From Litorimonas sp. (lineage in GTDB: Bacteria > Pseudomonadota > Alphaproteobacteria > Caulobacterales > Maricaulaceae): a DNA stretch of 64,000 nucleotides. The stretch lies in contig JBDWGH010000001.1 of the NCBI GenBank assembly GCA_039975855.1, forward strand, positions 31 to 64,030, in the 5' to 3' direction. The stretch's first letter is position 1; every line of letters begins with the position of its first letter. Shown here piece after piece: positions 22,749-43,151 of the stretch. Below the pieces are notes generated by a model. That model was not told where the DNA came from and made no database searches. It saw only the letters and a program-made list of their open reading frames with translations. The position numbers and the translations under genes were made by a program.

Positions 22749-23099
<351 letters not shown>

Positions 23100-23468: not shown

Positions 23469-23488
23469 TGTTCGCGACTGCAGTTCAC
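23469..23488 (+). repeat. 20-bp exact direct repeat, copy 2 (TGTTCGCGACTGCAGTTCAC)
   Basis: Lies 105 bp after copy 1 (start to start). It ends 2 nt before the GGTGGAG SD of the malic enzyme gene. Confidence 0.9.
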
Positions 23489-23503
23489 CCGGTGGAGATT
23501 ATC

Positions 23504-25798
23504 ATGAAAAAGCTTACACCTCGTCCGCCAAAAAAGACCTTCATCACAGATGAACAGGCCTTACGATTTCATTCCGATCCGACGCCGGGCAAACTTGCCC
23601 TACAGCCAACAAAACCAATGGCCACCCAGCGCGATTTATCGCTGGCCTACAGTCCTGGTGTGGCTGTTCCCGTGGAAGCCATCGCCGCCGATCCTGACAC
23701 TGTTTATGACTATACGTCCAAAGGCAATATGGTTGCCGTCATATCAAACGGTACCGCGATTTTAGGTCTTGGGAATTTAGGCGCTATGGCGTCAAAGCCC
23801 GTTATGGAGGGGAAATCTGTCCTCTTTAAACGTTTCGCCGATATCGATAGCTTCGATATTGAGGTTGAGGAAGAGGATGCTGAGGCCTTCATTGAATGCG
23901 TCAAACGTTTCGGAAACACGTTTGGGGGTATAAACCTTGAGGATATAGGTTCCCCTGAGTGTTTTATCATCGAGCAAGAGCTCCGAGACCTACTCGACAT
24001 CCCAGTGTTTCATGACGATCAACATGGTACGGCCATTATCGCGACCGCCGGCCTAATCAACGCGTGTCACCTGACCGGACGAAACTTTGAAGATATCAAA
24101 CTTGTGCTATCCGGTGCAGGCGCTGCGGGGCTCTCTGTCCTCAATCTTGTGAAGCGTCTTGGCGTGAAAGATGAGAACGCGATTGTAATCGACAGCCGCG
24201 GTGTCATCTATCGCGGACGAAAAGAATATATGGATCAGTGGAAGGCGCCGCACGCCGTTGATACGGAATTGCGGACGTTGGAAGAGGCTATGATTGGTGC
24301 AGACGTTTTCTTTGGCCTCTCTGTAGCTGGGATCGTGTCGAAAGATATGGTGAAATCTATGGCGCCAAATCCGATTATTTTTGCCATGGCTAATCCGGAC
24401 CCGGAAATCCTGCCTGAAGATATTAAAGCCGTTCGAGATGATGCGATCATTGCAACTGGCCGATCTGATTACCCCAACCAGGTCAATAATGTGCTCGGCT
24501 TCCCGTATATTTTCCGCGGAGCTCTCGATGTTCGGGCTCGGAACGTAAACGAAGAAATGAAATTAGCCTGTGCGCATGCGTTGGCAGATTTGGCACGTCA
24601 GGATGTACCCGAAGAAGTCGCCGCCGCGTATCATGGCAATCGTCCGAAATATGGTCCTGAATATATTATCCCAGCGCCATTCGACCCACGTTTGATTTCC
24701 GAAATCCCGCCTTATGTCGCCCAAGCTGCGATGGACACAGGTGAGGCTCGTAAACCGATTGAAGATATGGAGGCTTATAAAAAATCTCTCGCCCGTCGTC
24801 AGGACCCAACGGCTGCAATTCTCCAAGGTATTACGTCCGCTGTCCAAGATGAACCAAAGACGATTGTCTTTGCGGAAGGTGAAGAGCCGGCGGTCATTCG
24901 CGCCGCTCAAGCCTTTCAACAACGTGGATTGGGAAAAGCCATATTGATTGGCCGCGAAAAGCCGATTTACGATAATATGAAACTTCTTGGTGTCGAAAAT
25001 CCAGAAAGCCTCACGGTATTGAATGCACGGCTTTTTGATAGAAACGCGGAATTCACAGAATATCTATATAGCCGATTGCAGCGGAAAGGTTTCCTTCGGC
25101 GAGATGCACAACGCCTCGTGAATAATGATCGAAACGTGTTTTCATCGCTTTTGCTTCAGCATGGTTTGGCAGATGGTATGGTGTCCGGTGTGACTCGATC
25201 TTATGATGTTGTTTTGCGGGATGTTCGTCTAGTCCTGGCGCATCGTCCGGAAGAACGCACAATGGGTGTTTCGGTTGTTGTGAACCGCGGGAAAACACTT
25301 TTCATCGCAGATACCAATATCACAGAACTTCCCGATGCATGGGACTTGGCAAATATCGCTGAATCGACGGCCAATTTTGCGCGTGAATTTGGGTTTGAGC
25401 CGCGCGTTGCCTTTTTGTCCTATTCGACATTTGGCAATCCGGTTGGAGAGCGTATGAAAAAGGTTCGAGAAGCCGTTCAAATCCTCGATGAGCGCGAAGT
25501 TGATTTTGAATATGAAGGGGATATCGCTGCCGATGTAGCACTGGATCCAATGCATATGCTGACATATCCGTTCTCACGTCTTACCGATTCAGCCAATGTT
25601 CTGGTGATGCCAGCTATTCATAGTGCGTCGATCTCAACAAAGTTATTGGACACAGTCGGCGGAGCAACCGTATTAGGGCCTTTCTTGACGGGGCTAGAAA
25701 AGCCGGTTCAAATTTGTTCTCTTGGCGCCACGGCGTCCGAGATCGTGCAAATGGCGACCTTGGCGGCCTTTGCGCCGTCGCATCGTGATTTAGGCTAA
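23504..25798 (+). CDS. maeB: NADP-dependent malic enzyme (malic enzyme domain fused to a phosphotransacetylase-like domain)
   Basis: About 764 aa. SLAYSPGVA, FHDDQHGTAI and a GAGAAG NAD(P) fold, plus a C-terminal PTA-like half. The ATG at 23504 with SD is preferred to the GTG at 23492. Confidence 0.93.
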   Translation: MKKLTPRPPKKTFITDEQALRFHSDPTPGKLALQPTKPMATQRDLSLAYSPGVAVPVEAIAADPDTVYDYTSKGNMVAVISNGTAILGLGNLGAMASKPVMEGKSVLFKRFADIDSFDIEVEEEDAEAFIECVKRFGNTFGGINLEDIGSPECFIIEQELRDLLDIPVFHDDQHGTAIIATAGLINACHLTGRNFEDIKLVLSGAGAAGLSVLNLVKRLGVKDENAIVIDSRGVIYRGRKEYMDQWKAPHAVDTELRTLEEAMIGADVFFGLSVAGIVSKDMVKSMAPNPIIFAMANPDPEILPEDIKAVRDDAIIATGRSDYPNQVNNVLGFPYIFRGALDVRARNVNEEMKLACAHALADLARQDVPEEVAAAYHGNRPKYGPEYIIPAPFDPRLISEIPPYVAQAAMDTGEARKPIEDMEAYKKSLARRQDPTAAILQGITSAVQDEPKTIVFAEGEEPAVIRAAQAFQQRGLGKAILIGREKPIYDNMKLLGVENPESLTVLNARLFDRNAEFTEYLYSRLQRKGFLRRDAQRLVNNDRNVFSSLLLQHGLADGMVSGVTRSYDVVLRDVRLVLAHRPEERTMGVSVVVNRGKTLFIADTNITELPDAWDLANIAESTANFAREFGFEPRVAFLSYSTFGNPVGERMKKVREAVQILDEREVDFEYEGDIAADVALDPMHMLTYPFSRLTDSANVLVMPAIHSASISTKLLDTVGGATVLGPFLTGLEKPVQICSLGATASEIVQMATLAAFAPSHRDLG

Positions 25799-25856
25799 AA
25801 CACTGTCATCACCGCAAAAGACCAACGTCCTTGAAGGCTCGGTAGCTAAGCATATC

Positions 25857-27182
25857 TTGCGTATGCTGGGGCCGTTTTCTATTGCGGTGATCGCGATGAT
25901 TTCGACAGGCATCGTGGACACAATTTACCTTGGCCGCTTAGAAGACCCAAATAATCCAAATATTGCGCGCGCTGTTCTGGCAGCGTTGGGAATCGCATTC
26001 CCGATCAGCTTTATTGGAAACAGCGCGAATATCGGGCTTGGGGCTGGAACGATGAGCGCGGTTTCTAGAGCTTTGGGGCAGGGGGATGCAGCTAAGTCAA
26101 AGCGACATGCTGCTGCAGCAATCTTGCTCGGTTTGTTTGTGATGAGTTTTCTTGTGGCCTTCATGCTACTGGTGTCGCCCTTCATTCTGTCTTTGATGGG
26201 GCAAAGCGACGACGTTGAGCAACGGGCATTCGGTTATCTCTTAATTGTATTGCCCGGGCTCATATTGGTTTCGGTTGCTTCGATGAGCAATAATATTCTC
26301 CGCGCAGGCGGAGAAGCCCTTCTTCCCTCTTCAATCATGATACTCGGCGCTATCATTAACATTATTCTCAATCCATTTTTTATCTATGGATGGGGGCCAT
26401 TCCCACGAATGGAGTTGCAAGGCGCTGCGCTTTCGACATTAGTCGGAAATGGGGTTGGCGCGGCTTACGGATTCTACATTGTCTTGTTCCATCGCAAGGC
26501 CATCGATTTCGTTGGTATGACTATGAAATCAATGAAACATGCTTGGTCAATTATCGGGCAGGTCGGCCTTCCGGCAGCGGGAACTAATATTATTGTTCCT
26601 GTCGCAACTTGGGTTGTGGTGGCCATTATTGGTAACGTTTTGGGGGAGGCCGATGTCGCGGCTTTCACTGTGGCTAGTCGTGCAGAATTGATTTCTGTTG
26701 GGCTGTTATATGCGTTGTCCGCATGTATTGGGGCTGTGACAGGGCGAAATGGCGGCGCAGGACAAACGGACCGCGTGCGGGAAGCTTTTCGGGTTTGCTA
26801 TCTGATTTGCATTGTTTGGGGAACAGTTATGGCCGTCCTTTTGGCCGTCTTTGCAACGCAAATCGCCAACCTGTTCACCAGCGATGAGCTTCTCATCGAG
26901 AAAATTATTCCGTATTTTTATATCGTGCCAATTACGGTTTTTGCTTATGGCTTTGTTTTCGTCAGTGCGGCTGGTTTGAATGCATTGGGACGTCCTATGT
27001 TTGGCTTGATTTACACAATTATTCGGTCACTCATTTTATATATCGGCCTCATCGCCATAGGGGTGTTCACAGCTGGTCTTGTTGGTGCATTTGTGGGTGT
27101 CGCCGCTGCTAATATCGTTTCAGGATTTATCGCGATTTACTGGACTTTAAAGAAAGCACCTATGACCGCGAAAGAGAGTTGA
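25857..27182 (+). CDS. MATE-family efflux transporter
   Basis: 441 aa, 12 TM and a two-fold internal repeat typical of MATE/NorM-like proteins. The start is ambiguous (TTG at 25857 or ATG at 25863). Confidence 0.75.
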   Translation: MRMLGPFSIAVIAMISTGIVDTIYLGRLEDPNNPNIARAVLAALGIAFPISFIGNSANIGLGAGTMSAVSRALGQGDAAKSKRHAAAAILLGLFVMSFLVAFMLLVSPFILSLMGQSDDVEQRAFGYLLIVLPGLILVSVASMSNNILRAGGEALLPSSIMILGAIINIILNPFFIYGWGPFPRMELQGAALSTLVGNGVGAAYGFYIVLFHRKAIDFVGMTMKSMKHAWSIIGQVGLPAAGTNIIVPVATWVVVAIIGNVLGEADVAAFTVASRAELISVGLLYALSACIGAVTGRNGGAGQTDRVREAFRVCYLICIVWGTVMAVLLAVFATQIANLFTSDELLIEKIIPYFYIVPITVFAYGFVFVSAAGLNALGRPMFGLIYTIIRSLILYIGLIAIGVFTAGLVGAFVGVAAANIVSGFIAIYWTLKKAPMTAKES

Positions 27183-27222
27183 CGGATAAACTCTTGGAGG
27201 CTAACTCCCGCGCTCACATCGT

Positions 27223-27307
27223 GCGGGTGTGGCGGAATTGGTAGACGCGCCAGATTTAGGTTCTGGTATCTTAGGATGTGAAGGTTCAAGTCCTTTCACC
27301 CGCACCA
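27223..27307 (+). tRNA. trnL: tRNA-Leu (anticodon TAG), class II with a long variable arm
   Basis: Acceptor GCGGGTG/CACCCGC, anticodon arm CCAGA-TTTAGGT-TCTGG, long variable arm, T arm GAAGG-TTCAAGT-CCTTT, encoded CCA. Confidence 0.93.
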
Positions 27308-27396
27308 CTTTTCTCTCGGTATCGGGCGTTTAAACCCTTGTAATTATACAGTTTTCCTGTGGAAGTCTATAGCTTCTTTTACTGTTTTACGCGTCC

Positions 27397-27432
27397 TGCA
27401 GTACAAACTGTAGTACAATGTGCGGTACAAAT
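27397..27432 (+). repeat. Three tandem 12-bp units TG(C/T)(A/G)GTACAA(A/T)N
   Basis: TGCAGTACAAAC / TGTAGTACAATG / TGCGGTACAAAT are head to tail, 13 nt upstream of the integrase-relic ATG. Confidence 0.85.
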
Positions 27433-27444
27433 GAGGAAACTGGT

Positions 27445-27720
27445 ATGAAAGCCATAAGCCGCCCGAACCATTATCTTCAGCAACACGGAGAGGTTTGGTA
27501 GTATGTTCGCCGCGTCCCGACGATTCTCACGAAGAATATAGGACGCCGCATTATTTCCCGTTCACTAGAGACCGATAGCGCAAGCATGGTGCGTAGGCGT
27601 CGTGATATGTGAGCCGACGCAGACGATGCCCGCTGGCAAAAGCTTATGCTTAGCACCTTCGATAGGCTTAGCGTTGACCGCTCCAATTTGCAGACTCGAT
27701 TGGAAAAGAAACTTGTGATG
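27445..27720 (+). pseudogene. Tyrosine integrase N-terminal relic (two in-frame stops, catalytic domain missing)
   Basis: Single frame: MKAISRPNHYLQQHGEVW*YVRRRVPTILTKNIGRRIISRSLETDSASMVRRRRDM*ADADDARWQKL. The G-x-W/Y-Y-x-RRRVP ... SL-x-T-x-D pattern is characteristic of the N-terminal arm of tRNA-associated integrases. The stops are at 27499-27501 and 27610-27612. Confidence 0.6.
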
Positions 27721-27752
27721 GTAAAGCAGATATTGGCTGTGCTTCAGAACGC

Positions 27753-28259
27753 TCATTCATCGATCCATTTTAGTTTTTCTAATGGATACCCAAGATACCA
27801 TTTTGCTCGCTCAAGGATGATGCGTGTTTTTACGACCTTTATTCCTAGGTCCTCGCGAACACTGACCTCATCGATTAAAGCGTTGAGGGCCTGTGTGTTT
27901 GAACAGCATGTAAAACAGATGTAATCGACATCCCCCGTAATACGAAGACAGTCCATAAATTCAGGTATTGTCTCGATTGCGGCTTCGAACCTTTTCCGGA
28001 AAGAGGTTGTGTTATTTTCAAGCGTAAATTCTACATAGGCTAGAACGTGCTCGACCATGCGGTCCAAGTCTAGATCCGTATGAAAGCTAACGAAATACCC
28101 GGCCTCTTTTAAGGCCTTCATGCGTTGAAAACATGCGCTGGGAGACAGCCCCACTTTTTCTGCTAATTCTTGATTGGAGATATCTGAGTTCAGATGCGTG
28201 ATGGATAGAATTTTCTTGTTAATTGCATCCAGTTTCAGGTTCTTTTTCTTTGATGTCAT
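27753..28259 (-). CDS. Lrp/AsnC-family transcriptional regulator
   Basis: MTSKKKNLKLDAINKKILSITHLNSDISNQELAEKVGLSPSACFQRMKALKEAGY (HTH) plus a C-terminal RAM/AsnC domain. ATG at 28259 with a GAGGAT SD. The ORF-track start at 28445 is an extension. Confidence 0.88.
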   Translation of the reverse strand: MTSKKKNLKLDAINKKILSITHLNSDISNQELAEKVGLSPSACFQRMKALKEAGYFVSFHTDLDLDRMVEHVLAYVEFTLENNTTSFRKRFEAAIETIPEFMDCLRITGDVDYICFTCCSNTQALNALIDEVSVREDLGIKVVKTRIILERAKWYLGYPLEKLKWIDE

Positions 28260-28397
28260 CTCATCCTCACTTCTGTGGAAACATAAAGCGAATTTTGATT
28301 TGCCTTCAATGACGAAATTGTTCCGTGTCATGGCTATCCTATTCGATGGATAATTCTGTTTGGATGACGTTAGTATTCTTAAAAAGGGAATGGGTCT

Positions 28398-29681
28398 GTG
28401 GACGAGAATAGTGAATTTGCAGCAGTAAAGATTGCCAGCAATCAATTGGTGCCTTGGCCGCGCGTTGCCGCGGTCGGCGCCATGGTCGCATTTTCGCTCC
28501 CAACTTTTGTGACCGGACTAGAAGTCGGGGCTGGATTGAGCCCCTTGAATACAGTTTGGGCGCTTCTTTGGGGCTCAGTTATTATAGTCATCATTGGTGC
28601 CGTGATGGGCGTTATTGGTGCCAAATCACGCATGAGCTCTTATCTTTTGGTGAGGATTGCATTTGGTGATCACGGCGCGAGTCTGGTCAATATTGCCTTT
28701 GCGATATCCTTATTGGGTTGGTTTGGCGTGAACATAAATCTGTTCATGGATGCTGTCGCAGGTTTGGGGCGAGACGTTTGGGCCGTAGATTTGCCGCCTG
28801 TTGGGCTCGCGATATTTGCGAGTTTTTGTATGACGCTCACCACTTTAATCGGGTTCAAAGCTATCAATATTCTCGCCAGCCTACTGGTCCCTGTCTTGGC
28901 CGTTGTAACGGTTTTGCTCGCGAAACTAGCACTATCGACGCAAACGATTTCCGAAGTTTTCGCGGTCGAAAAGGTCGAGACCCTAACTGTCGGTGAAGGC
29001 ATTTCTGCAATTGTCGGAGCGATTATTATCGGCGCCATAATTCTTCCTGATATCACCCGATTTGTCAGACATTGGAGCGGAGCAATCTATACCGCTATCA
29101 TTTCCTATCTCGTTGTTCAGATGGCGGTCATGGGCGCGGCTGCGCTTGCCGGTGCGACATCAGGTAAAGATGATGTGTTAGAGATCATGTTGGATTTAAA
29201 CTTGGGCATAGGTGCATTCCTCATCGTCATTGCGGGCAGTTGGGTACTTAACTCACTCAACCTTTACAGCGCTGTTCTCGGCATGAAGGCGACTTTTCCC
29301 AAACTGAAAACTATTTTTCTCACGATTGCTTTGGGGGTCATAGGCGTCGCTGCGGCATTGATGAATATCCTCGATAGTTTCATCACATTCCTATTTTACC
29401 TCTCGGTTATTTTCATACCTGTCGCCGGTGTTTTGATCATCGACGCCCTGCTTATTCGGCCAAGTATCTACAAAATAGAGACTTTGGAGAATAACCGCAC
29501 CTTAAACTGGAAGGCCTTTGCGGCTTGGGCTGTTGGCGCTGTCATCGCCGTTTTAGCATCTGACGGATTTATTCCAACCTTGACCAAGATCCCGGCATTG
29601 GATGCGGTTATCCTTTCGGGCGTTCTTTACATCGCTTTGGCGTGGACACAGCGGGAAACGAAACAGGCGACTTCGGCATGA
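28398..29681 (+). CDS. NCS1-family (cytosine/purine/uracil/hydantoin-type) permease
   Basis: 427 aa, about 12 TM and a CodB-like size and layout. GTG start. Divergent from the Lrp gene. Confidence 0.75.
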   Translation: MDENSEFAAVKIASNQLVPWPRVAAVGAMVAFSLPTFVTGLEVGAGLSPLNTVWALLWGSVIIVIIGAVMGVIGAKSRMSSYLLVRIAFGDHGASLVNIAFAISLLGWFGVNINLFMDAVAGLGRDVWAVDLPPVGLAIFASFCMTLTTLIGFKAINILASLLVPVLAVVTVLLAKLALSTQTISEVFAVEKVETLTVGEGISAIVGAIIIGAIILPDITRFVRHWSGAIYTAIISYLVVQMAVMGAAALAGATSGKDDVLEIMLDLNLGIGAFLIVIAGSWVLNSLNLYSAVLGMKATFPKLKTIFLTIALGVIGVAAALMNILDSFITFLFYLSVIFIPVAGVLIIDALLIRPSIYKIETLENNRTLNWKAFAAWAVGAVIAVLASDGFIPTLTKIPALDAVILSGVLYIALAWTQRETKQATSA

Positions 29682-31216
29682 GAATAGGCATTGATGTTGG
29701 CGGCACCCATACGGATGCAGTCATATTAGATGGTGATAAAGTTATCGCAGCGACCAAGGCGTTGACGTCTTCCGATGTCATCTCTGGCGTGACCGCTGCG
29801 CTGGACGAAGTTCTAAAGCAGTCGGCGGTGAGTCAGTCTTCGATCAAAACGGTTATGATCGGGACAACACAATTTACCAATGCGATTGTTGAACGCCGAG
29901 AGCTGTCGAAAGTGGCGGTTATACGTATTGGGCTGCCGTCAGGGCGCGGGATGCCGCCGATGGTGGATTGGCCACAAGACATGATCAATGCCATCGGTGC
30001 GGAAATCTACATCCTGCATGGCGGCTATCTTTACAACGGCTGGCCGGTCGCGGAGATGCGAGATGATGAAGTGAACGCCGCTGTCGAGGATATCCAAGGT
30101 AAGGGCATCAAGAATATCGCTATCGCCTCGGCTTTTTCTCCGATGAATAACACGCCAGAAACGCAGGTTGCGGCGAAAATTCGAGCGGCAATTCCGGATG
30201 CAAACATAACACTTTCGCATAGTTTTGGCCGATTGGGCCTTATGGAGCGCGAGAATGCCGCTATCATGAATACGACCCTTTTGCCATTTGCGGATAGAGT
30301 GGTCAGCTCATTTTTAGGAGCTTTGGCACAACGCGGACTGAATTGCCCCGCTTTCATTAGTCAGAATGACGGAACGTTGATGAACGCGGATTTCGTGCGC
30401 GCTTACCCCGCTCTTACCTTCGCATCAGGACCAACAAATTCACTGCGCGGAGCGTATAAATTGACGGGTTTAGAGGATGCAATCGTTGTTGATATCGGCG
30501 GCACCACTTCGGACATCGGGGTGATCCAAAATGGCTTCCCGCGTGAGTCTAATGTTATCGTAAATATTGGCGGTATTCGCACGAATTTCAGGATGCCTGA
30601 CATTTTGGCGATTGGCTTGGGTGGCGGCAGTCATGTGTCTGATGATGGCACGAAAATTGGTCCGCAGTCTGTCGGGCATAAATTGGTCACAGAAGGCCTC
30701 GTCTTTGGCGGGAAAACCCTCACCACTACTGATATCTTGGTCGCCGGGGGTCATGCCGATATTGGAGATAAATCTAGGGTTGCGCCTTTGGACGGCTCCG
30801 TCCTGACGCGGGCTAAGGCGACGCTCCATAAAATGCTAAACGATAATATCGAGATGATGAAACCGGGTGGAAAAGAAATGCCAGTCATTCTGGTTGGCGG
30901 CGGCGCTATTCTTGTGACGGAGGGTCTCAATGCCGCATCCAATCTCCATCGCCCCGAAAATGCAGGCGTTGCAAATGCCATTGGGGCAGCGATTGCTCAG
31001 GTTGGCGGAGAAGCGGAGCGCATGTTGTCTTACCGTCAAACGCCGCGTGATGAATCCATTGCATCCGTGACCCATGCTGCAACGGAACGGGCGGTTAAAG
31101 CAGGTGCCGATCCAAACACCATAAGAGCTGTCGATATCGAAGAAACGGCAGTGCCCTATATGGACGAAGGTGCAACGCGTGTTCGGGTCAAAGTGATTGG
31201 GGAATTGGCGCGATGA
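29678..31216 (+). CDS. Hydantoinase/oxoprolinase-family protein (HyuA-like, ASKHA fold)
   Basis: MRIGIDVGGTHTDAVILDG... and DIGGTTSDIGVI are the two ASKHA phosphate motifs of the hydantoinase A family. Its ATG overlaps the permease stop (ATGA at 29678-29681). Confidence 0.85.
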   Translation: MRIGIDVGGTHTDAVILDGDKVIAATKALTSSDVISGVTAALDEVLKQSAVSQSSIKTVMIGTTQFTNAIVERRELSKVAVIRIGLPSGRGMPPMVDWPQDMINAIGAEIYILHGGYLYNGWPVAEMRDDEVNAAVEDIQGKGIKNIAIASAFSPMNNTPETQVAAKIRAAIPDANITLSHSFGRLGLMERENAAIMNTTLLPFADRVVSSFLGALAQRGLNCPAFISQNDGTLMNADFVRAYPALTFASGPTNSLRGAYKLTGLEDAIVVDIGGTTSDIGVIQNGFPRESNVIVNIGGIRTNFRMPDILAIGLGGGSHVSDDGTKIGPQSVGHKLVTEGLVFGGKTLTTTDILVAGGHADIGDKSRVAPLDGSVLTRAKATLHKMLNDNIEMMKPGGKEMPVILVGGGAILVTEGLNAASNLHRPENAGVANAIGAAIAQVGGEAERMLSYRQTPRDESIASVTHAATERAVKAGADPNTIRAVDIEETAVPYMDEGATRVRVKVIGELAR

Positions 31217-32307
31217 AGCAGATCGATTTAAGTCATCTCGACGATTTGGCCTTAGGTTCCGTCTTTCTAGCGACAGGCGGCGGAGGTGACCCGCATGTAC
31301 CTCAACTTATCACAGAACAAGCAATCAAGTCTTACGGGCCAGTATCTTTAATAGCGCCAGAGGCATTAGATGATAACGCATTCATTGTTCCCATTGGAAA
31401 TGTTGGCGCGCCAACAGTTAGCTTGGAACTTCTTCCATCTGTCGACGAGGCTGCCAAAACAATTGAAGCCTTTGAAGCGCATATTGGGCGTAAGGTCGAC
31501 GCACTCGCCTCTTTTGAAATTGGTGGGGGTAACTCTCTTATCCCTCTGGTAGCCGCAGCAGTCAAAGGCATTCCAGTCGTTGATGGTGATGGTATGGGCC
31601 GCGCGTTGCCAGAGGCCCAAATGATGTCTTATGCAATCGCGGGCGTGCGGCCAACACCTGCTTTAGCAATGGATTACGCAGGTAATGTGGCAACATTTCA
31701 GACGGATACGACGGAAGTGTATGAGCGCCATATTCGCAGTTTTGCAATGGCCGCAGGAGGTATGATCACAACAGCTGAGCACGCCATGAATGGTTCCGAG
31801 TTGAAGCGCTCTGTGATCCCTGGGACGCTAAGTTTTTCGGTCGAACTTGGGCGCATTTTACGAGAAAATAGAGGGCAAGCCGAAGGTTTGTTGGAACCCC
31901 TTCAAAACGCCTTCTCCGCGTCAATTTACGGGCAATGCAAACTAGTTTTTCAAGGTAAAGTTATCGACAAGGGGACACGTATTGTCGGAGGGTATGACGT
32001 TGGCGAGGCTATCATAGAGCGCTTCGATGGTTCAGGGGAGCCTCTCAAAATTAGAATTAAAAATGAATATCTTCTCGCGACTATCGAGGAGAAGGTCATT
32101 GCCAGTGTCCCGGATTTGATCGTGATTGTAGATTACGAAACTGGAACGCCGATTAATGCTGAGCGCCTACGTTATGGTCACCGAGTCGCCGTTTTCGCTG
32201 TAGGGTGTCCTGATTTTTACCGGACTCCAGCCGCGTTGAAAGTTGTTGAACCGCGCTGCTTTGGTTTTGATATCGATTATGTTGCGCTGGAGGATATTCA
32301 TCCATGA
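31213..32307 (+). CDS. DUF917-family protein
   Basis: N-terminus LALGSVFLATGGGGDPHVP matches the DUF917 G-rich signature. ATGA overlap with the upstream gene at 31213-31216. Confidence 0.8.
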   Translation: MKQIDLSHLDDLALGSVFLATGGGGDPHVPQLITEQAIKSYGPVSLIAPEALDDNAFIVPIGNVGAPTVSLELLPSVDEAAKTIEAFEAHIGRKVDALASFEIGGGNSLIPLVAAAVKGIPVVDGDGMGRALPEAQMMSYAIAGVRPTPALAMDYAGNVATFQTDTTEVYERHIRSFAMAAGGMITTAEHAMNGSELKRSVIPGTLSFSVELGRILRENRGQAEGLLEPLQNAFSASIYGQCKLVFQGKVIDKGTRIVGGYDVGEAIIERFDGSGEPLKIRIKNEYLLATIEEKVIASVPDLIVIVDYETGTPINAERLRYGHRVAVFAVGCPDFYRTPAALKVVEPRCFGFDIDYVALEDIHP

Positions 32308-32466
32308 TTCAGCAACCGCATAAGATGAAAAAAACAGCATCTTTGGCTCAAAGCAAACAATATTCCATCTTTAGAGGTCACTGCAGAATAGCCGAGCTTT
32401 ATCTTGTATTCGCGGCAGCATAACCATTACAAAGACTTAACTAAACCATATTTTGAGGGAAATATT

Positions 32467-35400
32467 ATGGGACTGACATCACCGAAATTTAGAGGACGCC
32501 TAACAGCTTCCGCAAGCTTACTAGCAATGTCGTTTGCTGGACTTTCGACAACAGCGACAGCGCAGGATGCAGCCGCAGATGACGTCATCGTCATTACAGG
32601 TTCGCGGATTCCTCAAGATCCGAACTTACTCTCTTCCATTCCTGTTCAATCTCTTGACAGTGAAGCTATCAAACTCTCTGGCGAAATTAGCTTGGCAGAA
32701 ATTGTCAATGATATTCCGGCGCTTGTCTCTTCTACATCCGTTGAAAATTCCGTTTCCGGCGGAAGTTCTCTGAACCTTCGCGGTTTGGGTGCAGCGCGTA
32801 CGTTGACGCTTGTAAATGGACGCCGCCATGTCGCAGGTTTCCGAGGAACATCTTCCGTTGATGTGGGTTCCATACCTCGTGCCCTTGTTGAGCGAGCGGA
32901 AGTCACAACTGGTGGCGCGTCTGCCATCTATGGTGCAGACGCTGTTACAGGTGTTGTCAACTTTATCCTAAAAGATGACTTCGAAGGGTTCGAAGCTGAC
33001 GTTAGAGGTGGTATCTCCACACATGGCGATGCCGAAAACTTCGTAATTGATGCAACTTACGGCAAGAATTTCGACAATGATCGAGGTAACTTTGTTATTA
33101 GCGCAAGTTATGTCGAAGATACGTCATTGACGAATGCCGATCGATCTTTTTCACGCAACAACAATATTGCTGTCGACCTGGCCAACCCCGCACTTCGATT
33201 GCAAGCGGGCGACCTTGGGTCCGATACGCCTAACTTTAACGACTTGACGATCGGGTCAACTCTTCTGGGCATAGACACGACAGGCCTGACGCTTACTGCG
33301 ACGGAACAAGCTTTAATCGCTCGTGCATCAGGTGCACCTGCGCGGATCATTGCACGAGACCCGCGCGTCTGGTTGTCATCTCAAACAGGTTCTATTGCAC
33401 CCGGATTTGGCGGGCGCGGCACGACCTATGTTGATTTGAACAATAACGGCATCGCCGATTGTCAGGAATCTCGTGGTGGACAAATCGGTTTTCTCGCGGG
33501 TTGTTGGATCACAAACTCAGACGGCTCGGTCAGTGTCTTCGAAGAGTCTCTTATCGGCGACTCCAGCTTCCGTGGCGTAGGGAATCCTGATGGCAGCGGT
33601 AGCGGTGGTTTGTTTAACTTTAATAGAGACACGCTCTATCCGGAAACAGACTCGTTCTCTATCAATGTGAATTCCAATTATGAATTGGCGCCAGGCCTTA
33701 CAGCCTTTGTTGAGGCCAAATATGTTACCGCCGAATCTCGCACGTTTGGGGAGCAAGATTCATTCTATGACACCTTATTCATCGCAGCAGACAACCCCTT
33801 TATCCCTGATGAGCTTCAACCTGTTGTCGCGCAAACAGGTGGATTGCTGCTCACGCAAGACCCGATTGATTTATTGGACAACAACCCAACAATTACCGAA
33901 CGCGAGACGTTCCGCATTGTCGGTGGACTGAAGTGGGAAACCGATAGCGGGCATAAATTTGAGGTTTCCGCCAACCATGGTGAGTTTAAGAATACACAAG
34001 ACTCTTCAACTGTATTCCTCGATCGCCAGTTTGCTGCGACCGATGCTGTTAGAGCGCCTGACGGAAGTATTGTCTGCCGATCTGACTTAGATCCGAACGC
34101 ATTCTATGAAATCGACTATTTTACGGCTGGGAACGGCTTTGCTGATGGCGGTTTTGCATCAAACCGGTACTATTCCTTCACTCCTGGTGATGGCCAGTGT
34201 CAGCCATTGAACCCCTTCGGCGATAATTCGGTCAGTGAGGCTGCACAAGACTTCTTGAGTGCGGATTTAACGGATGAAATCAAACTAACTCAAACTGTTA
34301 TTTCGGGCACAGCCGCAGGTAATATTGACGTACTTTCTAGCCTTCTTGACGGACCAATTGGTTACGCTATCGGTGCTGAATATCGAAATGAGACGAGTGA
34401 AGATACGAAAGATCCGCTCCGCTTGGGTGTGCTGCCACAAGGCACGTCTTTTACGCCCGGCGTATTGTCTAACACGATCGATCCATTCCTAAACTCATTT
34501 ATCAGCATCGATAATGATCAACAGTTCAATACAAGCGGTAGTTATGATGTTCGGGAAGTTTACGGTGAGGTTCGCATTCCAATCTTTAGGGATGCACCTC
34601 TCGCCAAAGAACTTACAGTTGATGCTGCTGTTAGATACGCGGACTACAGCACAGTAGGAGGTCAAACGACTTGGAAGGTTGGTTCAACTTGGGCGCCCAT
34701 CAATGACCTTAGTTTGCGAGGTACTATCTCGAGAGCCGTTCGTGCGCCGAATGTCGCTGAGCTCTTTGATCCTGAACTTCCAATCCAAATTGGCTCTGAT
34801 CAAGATCCATGTAACTTAGAAAATGTAACGCTTGGAACCGCTAATCGCGAAGCAAACTGTGTGGCCGGACTTCTGGCCGCGGGTGTTCCAGTTGCAGATG
34901 TTCAGGATGCAGCAGGTAACTATATCTGGGAAAATCCTCTGACTGGTCGCTTTACAGGGACGTCTGGTGGTAACCCAAATCTTGATGTAGAAACTGCTGA
35001 CACATTCACCATTGGCGCAGTCATTCGTCCTTCCTTCTTACAGGGTTTCTCACTGACTGTGGATTATTGGGATATCGAAATTGAAAATGCCATTTCCGCA
35101 GTTGCTGCAGGAGACATTTTAGAGGGGTGTCATGACTCTGCCGATTTCCCGAATGTACCATTCTGTGGAGCATTTGAACGTCGATCGGATGGAGGTTTGT
35201 CTGATCTAAGCAGTGGCCAAATCAACTTCGCCCGCCTTGAAGCAAGTGGTGTTGATTTCGCGGCGAATTACACATTTGATTTAGGCGAAAATTCGTTTGG
35301 TGCAAATCTTGTTGGATCATACCAAGAGAAACTGGATCGGTTCTTTAATCCGCTTGATCTGACTGAAGTTGATCCAGAATTGCAAGAGGTTCAACGTCCA

Positions 35401-35709
35401 GAGCTTTCAGGCAACCTTCTTCTATCTTGGGATCGAGGGCCAATTGGCGTTGGTTTCCAAACTAGCTATCAGAGCAAGCAATCGGTTGACGAAATTGAAG
35501 ATGTATTAGCTGGACAGTTTGGTGATGCAGGCTTCTTTGATGAGACCTTCATTTTTGACGTAAACGCATCCTATGAGATGAATGATCAATTCACCGTTTA
35601 TGGAGGCGTGAACAATATCGCCGATAAAGATCCATTCTCAACACAAACAGCTTGGCCGGTTGGACCGCGTGGACGCTTTGTCTTCCTAGGTGTGAATTAC
35701 AAAATGTAA
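32467..35709 (+). CDS. TonB-dependent outer-membrane receptor
   Basis: Signal peptide ...LSTTATAQDA, TonB box/plug DDVIVITGSRIPQ...NLRGLGAARTLTLVNGRR, and a long beta-barrel. The ATG at 32467 with a GAGGGA SD is preferred to the track start at 32404. Confidence 0.92.
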   Translation: MGLTSPKFRGRLTASASLLAMSFAGLSTTATAQDAAADDVIVITGSRIPQDPNLLSSIPVQSLDSEAIKLSGEISLAEIVNDIPALVSSTSVENSVSGGSSLNLRGLGAARTLTLVNGRRHVAGFRGTSSVDVGSIPRALVERAEVTTGGASAIYGADAVTGVVNFILKDDFEGFEADVRGGISTHGDAENFVIDATYGKNFDNDRGNFVISASYVEDTSLTNADRSFSRNNNIAVDLANPALRLQAGDLGSDTPNFNDLTIGSTLLGIDTTGLTLTATEQALIARASGAPARIIARDPRVWLSSQTGSIAPGFGGRGTTYVDLNNNGIADCQESRGGQIGFLAGCWITNSDGSVSVFEESLIGDSSFRGVGNPDGSGSGGLFNFNRDTLYPETDSFSINVNSNYELAPGLTAFVEAKYVTAESRTFGEQDSFYDTLFIAADNPFIPDELQPVVAQTGGLLLTQDPIDLLDNNPTITERETFRIVGGLKWETDSGHKFEVSANHGEFKNTQDSSTVFLDRQFAATDAVRAPDGSIVCRSDLDPNAFYEIDYFTAGNGFADGGFASNRYYSFTPGDGQCQPLNPFGDNSVSEAAQDFLSADLTDEIKLTQTVISGTAAGNIDVLSSLLDGPIGYAIGAEYRNETSEDTKDPLRLGVLPQGTSFTPGVLSNTIDPFLNSFISIDNDQQFNTSGSYDVREVYGEVRIPIFRDAPLAKELTVDAAVRYADYSTVGGQTTWKVGSTWAPINDLSLRGTISRAVRAPNVAELFDPELPIQIGSDQDPCNLENVTLGTANREANCVAGLLAAGVPVADVQDAAGNYIWENPLTGRFTGTSGGNPNLDVETADTFTIGAVIRPSFLQGFSLTVDYWDIEIENAISAVAAGDILEGCHDSADFPNVPFCGAFERRSDGGLSDLSSGQINFARLEASGVDFAANYTFDLGENSFGANLVGSYQEKLDRFFNPLDLTEVDPELQEVQRPELSGNLLLSWDRGPIGVGFQTSYQSKQSVDEIEDVLAGQFGDAGFFDETFIFDVNASYEMNDQFTVYGGVNNIADKDPFSTQTAWPVGPRGRFVFLGVNYKM

Positions 35710-35738
35710 AAGCCGCCGAGGGATCTGCTACAATACGG

Positions 35739-35765
35739 ACGGAGGCTTCGGCCTCCGTTTTTTTA
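35739..35765 (+). terminator. Intrinsic terminator after the TonB-dependent receptor
   Basis: ACGGAGGC-TTCG-GCCTCCGT followed by a T7 run. Confidence 0.85.
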
Positions 35766-35804
35766 TGCCTTTATGATGTTCGATAGAGCGATTAAGCCAA
35801 CTCT

Positions 35805-37592
35805 ATGAACGATGTACAGACTTACCAAAAGCTAATGTCTAAAGGCAAAGCGTTCCTAAAGAACGATGATTATTCTGCCGCAAAACTGTCTTTGGAGGCG
35901 GCTTTAGGTTTGGTGCCAGATAGCTACGAAGGCTGGTTAGATCTGTCGACTAGTTTGTACCACCTCAAATCTTTTTCTGACGCAATTAAGGCTTGCGAAC
36001 GCGCGGAAAAGTTCGATCCACTTAAGAAAGAGTTCCAACAGATTCAACAGGCTATGCATTCGCGCCAATTCGCGACGGCCCAATCCATAGCTAGGGATAT
36101 GCTCAAGAAACACCCAGGGCACCCACGAGCAGTGTTTACATTGTCTCATCTTTTACAAATGCGTAACGCTTTTGAAGATCAAGTTGCGATCTTAAAGTTA
36201 GGGTTAGAACATTCACCAGCAAATGTTCACTTGAGGAAAACCCTGATCGCCGCCTATCAAGACATGGGCGATGTAGAAGAAGCTATAAAATCCGCTACCG
36301 ATCTATTTGATTTGGAGAGTGGTTTTTCGAATGCTTGGTCACGCATCGGATTGTTTATTCGCTATGGTTTCAATGAAAGCGCTCTGAATGCCTGTCAGGC
36401 TGCGAGGCCGTTATGTGGAGATAATAAGGCTCTAATCAGCGAATTAGACTTACTCCAGGGTCACGCACTAAAAACCTTGGGTCGAAGGGAAGAGGCTATC
36501 GCTTCCTACCGCGCATGTATTGTCAATAAGCCGAAAAGCGGTGCTCCATGGTGGGCTTTAGCTGATCTCAAAACCTATGAGTTCTCTTCTTCAGAGATAC
36601 AAAGTTTGGAATCGCTAATTCAATCCAAATCTCTAAGCCCTGAACATCAGTGCCAAGCCTTATTTGCCTTAGCAAAAGCCCATGAAATGAAATCCGGATT
36701 AACGGAGGCCATGCCTCATTACGAACGAGCGAATGCTGCCTATCCATATTTTCGATTTGACGCCGTGAGGTTTAGAAATGGAGCCAAACTCCTAGTGAAT
36801 TCATTCAATAAATCCGCGGTCTTCAAACAAGCAAAGCCAATCCCGAATGGACCTAGGCCAATTTTCATTGTCGGATTGCCAAGATCCGGTTCAACCCTTT
36901 TAGAGCAAATTCTCGCAAGTCACTCTCGGATCGAAGGCACAATGGAATTGCCTGTTTTACCGAACATCAAACGCAAAATGCATTTGACCGCGCTCAATAA
37001 ATTTTCGAAGTCGTTTTTACAAAATCTCGACCTTTTCTCAGAAAAGGATCTAAGTCATTTCGGACAGGATTACTTAAATGAGAGTGCTGTTTTCAGATCA
37101 GAGAATGCGCCGTTCTTTATAGACAAACTCCCCCATAATTTTGAACATATTGGGCTCATACATAAGATTCTTCCTAACGCCGTAATATTGGATATCAGGC
37201 GCCATCCGATGGATTGTGGATTGAGCTTGTTTAAGCAATTTTTCGCACGTGGGGTGGAGTTTAGTTACAAATTGCAAGACATTGGAGCTTATTATTCTAG
37301 CTATCAAAACATCATGTCCCATTGGGATGAAGTTTTACCGAACCGTGTTTTGCACATTCAGTATGAAGAACTTGTTCAAAACTTGGAACCGCAATTACGT
37401 ATTATCTTAAAACATATAGGTGTGGACTTTGAGACAGCCTGTCTTGAATTCTACAAGTCCAAGCGAGCCGTTCGTACAGCCAGTAGTGAACAAGTTAGAA
37501 TGCCAATTTTCACTTCCGCTATTGGAGTTTGGAAGGAGGTTGAAGAAAATCTATCGCCATTGAAAACGGCATTAAATCATGGTGTGAACTGA
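35805..37592 (+). CDS. TPR-repeat-containing sulfotransferase-family protein
   Basis: The N-terminal ~330 aa are TPR-like helical repeats. The C-terminal domain has the PAPS 5'-phosphosulfate motif GLPRSGSTLLEQIL and DIRRHPMDCGLS. There is no signal peptide. Confidence 0.85.
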   Translation: MNDVQTYQKLMSKGKAFLKNDDYSAAKLSLEAALGLVPDSYEGWLDLSTSLYHLKSFSDAIKACERAEKFDPLKKEFQQIQQAMHSRQFATAQSIARDMLKKHPGHPRAVFTLSHLLQMRNAFEDQVAILKLGLEHSPANVHLRKTLIAAYQDMGDVEEAIKSATDLFDLESGFSNAWSRIGLFIRYGFNESALNACQAARPLCGDNKALISELDLLQGHALKTLGRREEAIASYRACIVNKPKSGAPWWALADLKTYEFSSSEIQSLESLIQSKSLSPEHQCQALFALAKAHEMKSGLTEAMPHYERANAAYPYFRFDAVRFRNGAKLLVNSFNKSAVFKQAKPIPNGPRPIFIVGLPRSGSTLLEQILASHSRIEGTMELPVLPNIKRKMHLTALNKFSKSFLQNLDLFSEKDLSHFGQDYLNESAVFRSENAPFFIDKLPHNFEHIGLIHKILPNAVILDIRRHPMDCGLSLFKQFFARGVEFSYKLQDIGAYYSSYQNIMSHWDEVLPNRVLHIQYEELVQNLEPQLRIILKHIGVDFETACLEFYKSKRAVRTASSEQVRMPIFTSAIGVWKEVEENLSPLKTALNHGVN

Positions 37593-37742
37593 TGTCAGAT
37601 CTGAGGGTGGTTGTAGTCAAAGCGTGAATTTTGTTTGCCTTTTACAGATACACAGTTGCAAATAGAATTTGTATGATAAGCGGCTAGTAAGGTTTTTAAA
37701 TTGCTGTAATTGGTAATTTGTCGAGCGGAAACTAGCTTAATG

Positions 37743-37763
37743 CCCCCGCACCATTTTTCTTTC
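37743..37763 (+). repeat. att-like copy of the tRNA-Leu 3' end
   Basis: CCCCCGCACCATTTTTCTTTC against CACCCGCACCACTTTTCTCTC (27297-27317): 18/21 identical with a 9-nt exact core CCCGCACCA. Confidence 0.5.
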
Positions 37764-37768
37764 TGAAG

Positions 37769-38950
37769 TTAAACCGACAGGACATCCCAACAGGCCCCCA
37801 TTGTATGGTAGCCTGTTTTTCCGTGTGGTGATTTTTTGTTGTCTATGGCTGACCCGTCACGATTGCGAACGCGAAACCATTCGCCATACGTATGGTCAAT
37901 CATATGATCCCAACTCCATCGCCAAATTCGCCGATAGTCCATTAAGTATTTTTCTTGACCCGTTGCCTTGTACAGCCTCCAGGCAGCTGCAAAACCTTCT
38001 GCTTGAACCCAGAAGTATTTTTCAGTCGCGCAATAGCTGGCATCGGGCGCGACGCCATAGACGATGCCGCCGAATTCATTATCCCAACCTGATCTTATAG
38101 CATTTTCATATAGGTTTTGCGCTTTAATGACCCATTTTTCATTTGGCCTTTCACCGTTCAATATCATGAGTAGCTTACTCCACTCTAATTGATGACCGGG
38201 CTGAAAGCCCCACGGTTTGTATCGGTCATTGGGCTTATCGATATTATACTCCATATCAACGTTCCAATTGGCGTCATAATGCTCCCAGATTTGTCCCTCT
38301 GACTGAGCGGCTAGGTCGACTGTAAATTTCTGCGCTAGCTGTTCAGCGCGATCTATAAAGCGAATATCTTCTGTTGCCTGCCAAGCAGCCAGTAAAGCTT
38401 CGCACATATGCATATTCGCGTTCTGTCCGCGGTAAGGGGACAGATTATCTAGAGTTTGATTGCGCTCATCAAAATATGCACCGCCTGAGGCGTCCCAAAA
38501 ATGGGTTTCCATAAAGTCGAAGGTCTCGTTTAACGTTTGGTGCGCTGAAGGGACTCCGACGCGAAGACACGCTGCGGCCGCCAAAATAACGAAAGCATGG
38601 CCATAGGCCATGACGCGAGTATCCGTGACAATGTCTTTTTCGATCAGCCAAGCATAATGACCATTGGGTTGTTTGTGGGCCGTGTTGAGAAAATTTAACC
38701 CCCATTTCGCCCATTCCAGATGCTTTGGATTGCCGTATAGGCGGTAGGCGGTCGCGTAGTTAAACACATATCTAGCGGATCCAACTAACTGACGACTGTC
38801 GGGGTCGAAGCACTCTCCATTGTCGAGGAAGCAGCCGTAGAAACCGCCGTCTTGGCAGAACACTCGTGGATCATAAAATGCAAGTGAGGACGCGATATGC
38901 TTCTCTAAGAAGTCCGGCCGTTCAAAAATAGAGTCGTCCAGCATGTTCAT
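37769..38950 (-). CDS. AGE-family (N-acylglucosamine 2-epimerase / aldose-ketose isomerase fold) protein
   Basis: 393 aa. (alpha/alpha)6-barrel family motifs RGQNANMHMCEALLAAW and GFQPGHQLEWSKLL. Confidence 0.8.
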   Translation of the reverse strand: MNMLDDSIFERPDFLEKHIASSLAFYDPRVFCQDGGFYGCFLDNGECFDPDSRQLVGSARYVFNYATAYRLYGNPKHLEWAKWGLNFLNTAHKQPNGHYAWLIEKDIVTDTRVMAYGHAFVILAAAACLRVGVPSAHQTLNETFDFMETHFWDASGGAYFDERNQTLDNLSPYRGQNANMHMCEALLAAWQATEDIRFIDRAEQLAQKFTVDLAAQSEGQIWEHYDANWNVDMEYNIDKPNDRYKPWGFQPGHQLEWSKLLMILNGERPNEKWVIKAQNLYENAIRSGWDNEFGGIVYGVAPDASYCATEKYFWVQAEGFAAAWRLYKATGQEKYLMDYRRIWRWSWDHMIDHTYGEWFRVRNRDGSAIDNKKSPHGKTGYHTMGACWDVLSV

Positions 38951-38970
38951 GGGTGGTCTCCCCCTGATTG

Positions 38971-40278
38971 TCAGGCTTTGGCTTGCATGAGTTCGGCGAA
39001 ACGGGCTTCTACGCCTGTGAAACCCATATACGCAATCACGAGAGAGAAGAGTAATATTAGGACGAGGATAAGATTTGAGATCAATCCATTTTTATATGCG
39101 CCCATCAATTTTGTCTGATTAGTGAGGTAGAAAATGCAGAGAACTGTTGCCGGAAGAATGATAGCACCAAAAGCCTGGGAAACGAGCATAACCAATACGG
39201 GTCTGGCACCTAGTAATGGCACAACTAACCCAAGCAGTGAAATAAAGAACACCATGATGCGATAACGCGAAAGCGTCATATCCCGGCTTGTGCCTCTATA
39301 ATCGCAGATCAACCAAGGTAGCATCAAAACATTTGGGAATTGGGAAGATACGCCAGCAGAGATAATTCCAATCGCAAAAATAGATGTCGCCAATGGCCCC
39401 GCCAGCGGTTCAAGAAGGCTAATCATCTGGGAAGCTTCTGTGAGCTTTATGCCTGCGACATGTAACGTTCCGGCGGCGGCGGCCATGATAGCGGCGCTTA
39501 TCACGAACATTAAGCTGACGGAGACAAGCGCGTCATTGCGCTGGGTTTTCTCATCGTCCAGTGTCCAACCAGCTTCTTTTACGAGCGTTGTGCGGATGAT
39601 GAATAGTCCCGAGAAAACGGTCGTGCCAACCATTGAAGCGATCACGAGTAAAGATCCTTTTTTAGCTGTGGGGTCCACCTCAGGTATTGCTGGAATGAGG
39701 CCTTTGAGAATATCCAGGGGAGGCGGCATCATGATAAAGAAATTTATCAAAAAACAGGCCGACATGATCGCGACGATAACGGCGAGGCTGCGCTCAAAAA
39801 ACTGCGTCTTTCCATTCCAAAAGATAAAAAAGACCAACGCAGAGAAAGTGGCGGCGAACCATATTGGCGCGATGCCGCCATCAATCATTGTCTTGGACCA
39901 TTCAAAACAAATATCAGCGACGATCCCCATAACACCCATGACGCTGCCAGCGACGCCCAACGTCAAAGCGACGATGAAATAAACACCAACCAAAGGATGA
40001 ATGTGTTTTTTGAAGGCCTGAAGGGCCGTCTCTCCGGTCACTAATGTATAGCGGCCGTAAAGGTTGATCATGAAATAAGTACAGAGGCAGGACGCAACGA
40101 GTGCCCAAAGAAGCGTCATCCCGTAATCTGCGCCGGCTTTGGCCATGGCCGTCACGCTTCCGGTGCCAAGATTGAACCCCAGAAGGAAAATTCCAGGAAG
40201 GAAAAGAGCCAAGGTACGGGCAAATTTTTGACGGGATCCTAATGCGTGAATTTCGTCTTCATTACTGACCTTGTTCAT
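38971..40278 (-). CDS. Nramp-fold (MntH-like) transporter lacking the canonical metal-binding residues
   Basis: TM1-2 region LPGIFLLGFNLGTGSVTAMAKAGADYGMTLLW aligns to Nramp GPGFLVAVAYIDPGNFAT..AGA.FGY.LLW, and ...RYTLVTGETALQA aligns to the RLGIVTG motif. DPGN is replaced by GTGS, and the TM6 motif A-T-V-M-P-H by T-T-V-F-S-G. ATG at 40278 with a GGGGAA SD. Confidence 0.75.
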   Translation of the reverse strand: MNKVSNEDEIHALGSRQKFARTLALFLPGIFLLGFNLGTGSVTAMAKAGADYGMTLLWALVASCLCTYFMINLYGRYTLVTGETALQAFKKHIHPLVGVYFIVALTLGVAGSVMGVMGIVADICFEWSKTMIDGGIAPIWFAATFSALVFFIFWNGKTQFFERSLAVIVAIMSACFLINFFIMMPPPLDILKGLIPAIPEVDPTAKKGSLLVIASMVGTTVFSGLFIIRTTLVKEAGWTLDDEKTQRNDALVSVSLMFVISAAIMAAAAGTLHVAGIKLTEASQMISLLEPLAGPLATSIFAIGIISAGVSSQFPNVLMLPWLICDYRGTSRDMTLSRYRIMVFFISLLGLVVPLLGARPVLVMLVSQAFGAIILPATVLCIFYLTNQTKLMGAYKNGLISNLILVLILLFSLVIAYMGFTGVEARFAELMQAKA

Positions 40279-40485
40279 AATGTTTCCCCAATTTATTCGC
40301 ACAATTGAATGAGGTTTTCTCCAGAACTCGACCCATTGTGACTTTGTTCGACGCTAGAGCGTGCACAAGTATATGTCTATGCCAATTGTGCATGCCATTT
40401 TTATGGACCAGTTAGAGCGTGACATTAGCTAGGTCGTAATTTACCCTGAACAGGTCTTCTATAATCCGGATGTGCCAATACGAAT

Positions 40486-43150: not shown

Positions 43151-43151
43151 T

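Follow-up and report, generated by a model that had tools for sequence, protein, structure and literature searches.

A probable decayed genomic island behind a tRNA-Leu gene of Litorimonas

In the stretch of DNA analysed here (the window, 64 kb of a Litorimonas metagenome-assembled genome, or MAG), an intact tRNA-Leu(TAG) gene is followed by the stump of a tyrosine integrase gene, a block of six metabolic and uptake genes and, about 10.5 kb on, a partial copy of the tRNA 3' end. A first-pass annotation of the window had proposed that these features belong to an integrated element whose integrase has decayed, fixing six cargo genes in place. Our analysis makes it very probable that 27308-37763 is a decayed tRNA-Leu genomic island of ~10.5 kb, fixed and strain-specific. 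The features of its two ends, in window coordinates, are as follows.

27223-27307, plus strand: tRNA-Leu(TAG), intact, its 3' end being the attachment site attB (ARAGORN and Rfam)
27292-27314, plus strand: attL copy of the integrase family's core, CCTTTCACCCGCACCACTTTTCT; the 21-mer of the first-pass annotation is 27297-27317
27308-27444, plus strand: element-derived left arm (P' arm), from the tRNA end to the integrase start codon, 91.2% identical in nucleotide sequence to the element of a conspecific genome
27445-27699, plus strand: integrase relic, the first ~85 codons of a DUF6538-type tyrosine integrase (Pfam DUF6538, homologues and conspecific DNA)
27700-27752, no strand assigned: junction spacer, from the breakpoint of the integrase deletion to the Lrp stop codon, with no homology to any integrase or related locus
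37593-37742, no strand assigned: AT-rich spacer at the position expected of the right arm (P arm), with no convincing arm left
37743-37763, plus strand: attR remnant, CCCCCGCACCATTTTTCTTTC, matching the attL 21-mer at 18/21 positions; conspecific homology starts at 37745

The evidence that carries this reading comes from a conspecific Litorimonas MAG (GCA_039978495.1, contig JBDWBG010000006.1, 88,880 nt; loci L075 and L076), whose epimerase is 97% identical to that of the window. On the left, window 12985-27684 aligns to the conspecific contig at 97.8%. Nucleotide identity is 99.0% for glnA, 99.7% for P-II, 98.7% for the malic enzyme gene and 97.1% for MatE, and reaches 100% in both the MatE-tRNA spacer and tRNA-Leu. 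It then falls to 91.2% in the arm (27308-27444) and to 85.8% over the relic (27445-27684), which aligns with the 5' end of a 460-aa integrase gene; after 27684 there is no homology to the conspecific. On the right, homology resumes at the first C of CCCGCACCA and continues at 97.6% from window 37745 to 48913. At this right breakpoint the conspecific carries a perfect attR, ...CTTGGAGCTTGCTGCAC-CCTTTCACCCGCACCA-TTTTTT..., followed by the same flank into the epimerase gene; the right arm of this attR has repeated TTGCCCTACA-like motifs and leads into the full 16-nt core. The segment 27308-37763 is strain-specific, and its breakpoints lie at the tRNA end and in the repeat core. The attL/attR geometry and the length of ~10.5 kb put forward in the first-pass annotation agree with these conspecific breakpoints, at the tRNA 3' end and at 37745.

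The same slot in the conspecific is filled differently. From tRNA-Leu to attR it measures ~35 kb, of which all but the middle ~19.6 kb was compared. It contains an intact 460-aa integrase (L076 4260-5642) with DUF6538 and Phage_integrase domains, of the same subtype as the window relic and at the same distance from the tRNA. A second integrase, of 458 aa and of the subtype found in loci L008 and L002, was compared without its first ~83 codons, and is followed by a formate dehydrogenase and molybdenum-cofactor cluster (L075 11182-21182). Judging from its gene content, the conspecific slot looks like a live tandem island array. The last gene of the window block, a sulfotransferase gene, was also searched against 5.8 billion proteins; apart from the window's own record, a single-member cluster, the best match was 75%. 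Because no sulfotransferase above 75% exists outside that record, we conclude that the conspecific is without the six genes.

The relic reads from 27445 as MKAISRPNHYLQQHGEVW*YVRRVPTILTKNIGRRIISRSLETDSASMVRRRRDM*ADADD..., with in-frame stops at 27499-27501 (TAG) and 27610-27612 (TGA). The frame and both stops are as first described, although one peptide quoted at the time is wrong, the sequence reading YVRRVP and not YVRRRVP. Compared with relatives, including L064 and the conspecific L076, each stop is a single-base change (TAT/TAC to TAG, TGC to TGA). With the stops masked, the translation matches Pfam DUF6538 (PF20172) at 34.6 bits, above the gathering score of 27, over model positions 1-58 of 60, and its DNA is 86% identical to the first 80 codons of the intact 460-aa conspecific gene. 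Both results support the proposal that it is the N-terminus of a tyrosine integrase; NCBIfam returned zero matches to the relic. The extent of the relic had been overestimated: homology to integrases ends at ~27684-27699 and not at 27752, and hence the last ~17 codons of the frame as originally drawn are not integrase. No remnant of the catalytic domain (PF00589) was found in the 64-kb window, a tblastn search with the C-terminal part of a relative giving nothing significant. On this sequence evidence, the relic is a gene fragment of the DUF6538 plus Phage_integrase family and not a functional member of it. It starts 138 nt past the tRNA, compared to 137 nt in L008.

The repeat at the right end exceeds chance expectation. 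The two 21-mers match at 18/21 positions as originally written, and when up to three mismatches are allowed, no site but these two turns up in the window (chance expectation 0.01). An unbiased scan, free of the post-hoc choice of the 21-mer, compared 45 nt (25 nt from the end of the tRNA and the adjoining 20 nt of flank) with the 20 kb that follow downstream on this strand. It ranked the repeat ending at 37763 first, with a score of 14 compared to 9.9 ± 0.97 in shuffled sequences, none of which reached 14 (0/60). Gapped alignment of the attL and attR neighbourhoods showed nothing beyond the 19-21 nt of the repeat. Counting those in tRNA ends and att repeats, the motif CCCGCACCA has 39 occurrences in 1.66 Mb of strand sequence; it is rare outside tRNA-Leu ends and att repeats.

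These data bear on one alternative, that the six genes are native chromosome, the stump is the sole remnant of a vanished island and an AT-rich spacer happens to match the 21-mer at 37743 by chance. Such a history would suit the occurrence of the block elsewhere without att features, its weak compositional signal, and a repeat that is short and of low complexity in its T-rich half. It does not account for the conspecific, which is missing the six genes and whose homology breaks exactly at the repeat core on one side and the tRNA end on the other, nor for the rank of the repeat in the unbiased scan and the rarity of CCCGCACCA outside tRNA-Leu ends and att repeats. We consider this explanation extremely improbable.

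The tRNA-Leu neighbourhood is variable well beyond this species. The tRNA-Leu(TAG) gene ends at 27307, as annotated at the outset and borne out by ARAGORN and Rfam; Rfam and scans for promoters and terminators gave nothing relevant beyond it. Using the MatE gene to the left of the tRNA as a genome-scan query, we obtained 15 related loci from Algimonas, Litorimonas, Hellea and other Caulobacterales. In 10 of the 15, malic enzyme, MatE and tRNA-Leu(tag) follow one another on one strand; two more (L013 and L015) have the tRNA beside MatE on the opposite strand, and no tRNA was seen in the last three, two of which end at or just past MatE. What lies 3' of the tRNA differs. In L001 the tRNA is directly joined to a homologue of window 43205-43916 (a GT2 glycosyltransferase), and in L004 a homologue of window 46001-47431 (HGLS) abuts it; both are empty sites. 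A 2-kb unrelated insert separates tRNA-Leu from the GT2 gene in L007, and other islands occupy the site in Litorimonas sp. WD9-15 (L002, a complete genome) and in L056. In L009 the tRNA is followed by an Lrp remnant and then by homologues of the permease, hydantoinase-like and S-Me-THD-like genes of the window block. Content 3' of the tRNA thus varies in nearly every related locus, which makes the site a hotspot. In the Litorimonas/Algimonas group, tRNA-Leu(TAG) is one used by integrases of the DUF6538 type.

To characterize the integrase family, we compared the relic with its homologues. A word-based protein search with the relic gave 10 of them (P0001-P0010; loci L056 and L061-L067), 62-79% identical at the amino acid level, all 95-168 aa long with DUF6538 only, and truncated or split at differing points. 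No full-length protein was returned by this search, although the conspecific 460-aa integrase is ~78% identical over these codons. An exhaustive HMMER search did recover full-length relatives, of 439-480 aa, and all three of those checked (449-461 aa) have both DUF6538 and Phage_integrase. L056 and L061-L064 have the relic behind tRNA-Leu, separated from it by the 137-nt arm that the window also has, and the left arm corresponding to 27308-27444 is kept in L056, L057 and L061-L066. The gene is split into parts of 141 and 286 aa in L063 and L064, the second part matching Phage_integrase, and in L008 it is a frameshifted, truncated relic. In the library searched, we found no papers on DUF6538; from its position, its role is presumed to be arm-site binding.

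A further group of metagenomic contigs (L057-L060 and L065) has the arm and relic preceded by other conserved sequence, not by the tRNA, with identity starting at CCTTTCACCCGCACCA. In L057 (1709-1908) and L065 (749-949), as well as in L058-L060, conserved right-arm sequence and the 16-nt core lie upstream of the relic arm, and an RtcR gene is found upstream of the L057 and L059 junctions. By their arrangement, such junctions would represent either two tandem islands or the attP site of an excised circle; the latter would be odd, as the integrase ORFs (open reading frames) there look truncated. These loci, together with an empty site, delimit the family core. It spans ~23 nt, CCTTTCACCCGCACCACTTTTCT, made up of 16 nt of tRNA end plus 7 nt. 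Its left limit is set by the tRNA-less copies in L057 and L065, where identity starts at CCTTTCA, and its right limit by L001, an empty site whose tRNA is likewise followed by CTTTTCT.

Litorimonas WD9-15 (L002) has tRNA-Leu, a frameshifted integrase relic with catalytic-domain motifs, 7.7 kb of cargo and a 21/23 repeat (CTTTyACCCGCACCATTyTCCTA), which scores 18 compared to 9.45 ± 0.93 in shuffles. Its layout is an independent example of the geometry seen in the window. The cargo there (11452-19136) includes a 1731-aa DUF4011/AAA_11/AAA_12 helicase with an MTES_1575 nuclease domain and an M48-like peptidase, and resembles a defence system.

Sequence conservation suggests that these elements move between hosts and lose their integrases late. 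The arm and relic of the window are 85-87% identical in nucleotide sequence to loci whose MatE genes are only 67% identical, which argues that the element end is horizontally shared. Over the N-terminal 85 codons, the ratio of nonsynonymous to synonymous substitution rates (dN/dS) among relic homologues is 0.09-0.24; it follows that the integrase was functional through most of the divergence and died recently in each host.

These observations lead to the following scheme. The 3' end of tRNA-Leu(TAG) would be the attachment site of DUF6538 tyrosine integrases of ~450-460 aa in this Litorimonas lineage. Recombination between the element core and the tRNA end would have restored a complete tRNA gene at attL, the opposite side of the element receiving an incomplete second copy of that end, attR. 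In this genome the integrase gene is deleted past ~85 codons, and the remaining stump carries two nonsense substitutions, the arm being kept. We infer that integration was integrase-mediated. Excision of 27308-37763 is predicted to be lost because there is no integrase, no catalytic domain in the window and the attR is truncated.

The block between these ends consists of six genes.

27753-28259, minus strand: Lrp/AsnC-family regulator (Pfam HTH_24, HTH_AsnC-type and AsnC_trans_reg; 82% amino acid identity in L068/L069)
28398-29681, plus strand: NCS1-type permease of the cytosine/purine/hydantoin family (Pfam Transp_cyt_pur; 77% in L068, 58% in L009)
29642-31216, plus strand: hydantoinase/oxoprolinase A-like protein (Pfam Hydant_A_N and Hydantoinase_A; 78% in L068, 75% in L009)
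31213-32307, plus strand: S-Me-THD-like (DUF917) protein (Pfam S-Me-THD_N and S-Me-THD_C; 76% in L068, 74% in L009)
32404-35709, plus strand: TonB-dependent receptor (Pfam Plug and TonB_dep_Rec_b-barrel; 89% in L068, 88% in L071)
35805-37592, plus strand: TPR-sulfotransferase, the last gene of the block (Pfam Sulfotransfer_3 and TPR; 73% in L068)

The Lrp gene lies where the first-pass annotation had placed it, on the minus strand at 27753-28259. None of the six ORFs is a mobility gene by Pfam (conjugation, relaxase, replication or phage structural functions). The receptor-sulfotransferase pair also occurs in L071 and L072, with yet other neighbours.

A number of observations weigh against the reading of the segment as a decayed island, or complicate it. 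First, all six genes are found, colinear and at 73-89% amino acid identity, in another marine genome (L068/L069, 1921-11788), between otsBA and a NosD-like gene; within 10 kb of that block there is no tRNA, integrase or CCCGCACCA repeat, which indicates that the block is independent of the window element. Finding the cargo elsewhere without the tRNA or the repeat had been named at the outset as something that would speak against an island, and L068/L069 are formally such a case, although they are outweighed by the conspecific breakpoints. Second, the part-block at tRNA-Leu in L009 follows the arm of another integrase subtype, that of L008. Third, the two ends of the island do not look equally aged, as the left arm is 91% conserved and the right end is degraded. 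Of the 16 tRNA-derived core bases, attR keeps only CCCGCACCA and one C (9-11 bases). Bona fide right arms share 74-76% identity with each other; in an ungapped, core-anchored comparison with them, the right spacer reaches only 29-37% over 110 nt (P = 0.01-0.27); over 60 nt the identity is 38-45% (P = 0.002-0.05), a marginal colinear signal. Fourth, no intraspecific empty site was seen, the conspecific slot holding different islands; the comparison with relatives thus gave breakpoints at the att sites and empty sites in other species (L001 and L004), but none within the species. Fifth, the composition of the island is only weakly atypical: its GC content is 47.4% compared to 49.5-50.6%, and its tetranucleotide distance, 0.146, compares with a null of 0.105 ± 0.014 (maximum 0.138), a deviation that comes mainly from 33-40 kb. 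Finally, the damage is large relative to a backbone divergence of ~2%, which points to deletions, or to homologous recombination that replaced the slot in its entirety, rather than to gradual decay in place.

For these reasons the early proposal that a decayed integrase fixed six cargo genes has to be divided. The decay is evident from the stops and the deletion. That the six genes were carried by the very element whose stump remains is a tentative suggestion, and a single element decaying in place is one of several possible histories.

One of the others is the collapse of a tandem array. At least one deletion inside it would have brought the left end of the youngest element (arm plus 85 integrase codons) up against the cargo of an older neighbour and what remains of its attR, and the six genes would be those of the neighbour. 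The conspecific slot, with two islands and two integrase subtypes in ~35 kb, provides a precedent, as do the tRNA-less core and left-arm junctions in L057-L060 and L065. A composite origin would also fit a left end that is 86-91% conserved next to a heavily degraded right end, and the permease, hydantoinase and S-Me-THD genes that stand behind an L008-type arm in L009. Set against this, 27700-37742 shows neither a further integrase fragment nor an internal repeat nor another arm, and the deletion endpoints must have spared exactly the six-gene block, a coincidence that selection for the block could explain. We regard such a collapse as possible, while not expecting it to be the actual course of events.

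The junctions themselves suggest another history, in which the interior of a dead island, from about codon 85 of the integrase to the middle of the attR core, was later swapped for a chromosomal six-gene block from a Litorimonas-like genome by one illegitimate or homologous recombination event. The junctions fall within 53 nt and 150 nt of the outer stop codons of the block, the right one lies inside the core, and the block is an ordinary chromosomal cluster in L068/L069. MatE, at 97.1% identity to the conspecific compared to 98.7-99.7% further out, behaves as expected near a recombination tract. The donor context is not known, however, and the spacers of the window have no homology to those flanking the block in L068, L071 and L072, though none is expected at this divergence. 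A replacement of this kind seems unlikely, if by no means far-fetched.

A more radical possibility is that the tRNA-Leu slot is a platform for cassette exchange that needs no resident integrase, the DUF6538 fragment and arm being selected as a homology anchor for exchanging cargo or, for integrases that act in trans, as a landing pad or regulator. Across hosts with far more diverged core genes, the left end of ~0.47 kb, from the tRNA end through the arm to codon ~85, is 85-91% identical, and it is joined at different breakpoints to unrelated metabolic cargo in several lineages. The shortness of all 10 relic homologues from the word-based search and their dN/dS of 0.09-0.24 belong to the same argument. 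The window fragment, with its two stops, is dead, and hence at most a DNA anchor could still act there. We think it quite improbable that the slot works in this way.

The right limit of the island might have been drawn further out on the basis of other species. There (L001, L004 and L007), everything from 27308 to ~43180 is missing beside tRNA-Leu, and a 15.9-kb island (27308-43180) was therefore a candidate. We rejected it since the conspecific MAG shows the uxu block to be native flank, colinear at 97.6%. In the window species, then, 37764-43180 is native right flank outside the island, comprising four genes, each identified by Pfam and colinear with the conspecific.

37769-38950, minus strand: AGE epimerase
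38971-40302, minus strand: Nramp
40486-41958, plus strand: UxuB-like protein
41924-43150, plus strand: UxuA

A tRNA-derived repeat was looked for at the 43181 junction and not found (2/11 bases). The tRNA-Leu flank of other species resumes at window 43181-43192 (TTTTTTAATTC; compare CTTTTCTAAGTC in L001 and TTTTTTAATC in L015). A metagenome scan with the epimerase gave matches of at most 74% identity, which show the Nramp-epimerase adjacency and no tRNA, sulfotransferase or repeat. We also rejected, as coincidence, an arm-like 27-mer at 43017-43043 that matches the right-arm repeat region of L057 in 24/28 aligned columns (0/300 shuffles). The UxuA domain match, reaching residue 405 of 408, encloses this 27-mer, which is colinear with no junction.

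Three other regions of the window drew our attention. A 78-nt tandem repeat (2.8 copies, 82% matches) lies at 45406-45624 between the GT87 and HGLS genes; the same interval in the conspecific holds a 195-aa ORF with no Pfam match, and the repeat gives offset blastn matches to the conspecific. The genes at 16767-17885 and 18059-19183 are tandem paralogues, matched at 76% and 69% amino acid identity by one ORF of L002, and their conspecific counterparts are annotated as Peptidase_M19 (membrane dipeptidase). The highest tetranucleotide deviation in the window (z ~2-2.5) is at 4001-12000, upstream of a region whose end matches RNA polymerase beta-prime in relatives, and probably reflects highly expressed genes rather than foreign DNA.

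The result matters mainly as annotation, in that 27308-37763 is strain-specific accessory DNA in a Litorimonas MAG. It also defines the ~23-bp core of an integrase family, CCTTTCACCCGCACCACTTTTCT, and provides a natural example of near-identical genomes that hold different islands in one slot, a fossil island in one and a live-looking tandem array in the other.

Compared with PF20172 tyrosine recombinases, the relic spans the DUF6538 domain end to end, and its full-length relatives add Phage_integrase; the window copy differs in having two stops and in lacking everything past codon ~85. Tandem arrays of islands at a single tRNA or tmRNA attachment site are well established, and the conspecific MAG conforms to them: two islands, either of which has an integrase of its own, fill the space from tRNA-Leu to the right flank that it shares with the window. 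The window, in contrast, keeps one repeat and one stump, and may have had a tandem past. Islands inserted at tRNA 3' ends by tyrosine integrases are classically those with P4-type integrases at leuX, pheV and selC in enterobacteria. Unlike these, the window integrase is of a DUF6538 (PF20172) plus PF00589 family from marine Alphaproteobacteria, the genes carried form a small block for metabolism and uptake rather than one for virulence or resistance, and attR is shortened to 9-11 nt. In other respects the window island resembles them: insertion at a tRNA 3' end, an integrase beside the tRNA, a distal direct repeat derived from the tRNA end, presence or absence and alternative occupancy among close relatives, and the frequent decay of the integrase that fixes the cargo. 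Fixation of cargo at a tRNA gene through integrase decay is a textbook phenomenon, and the window is an ordinary case of it.

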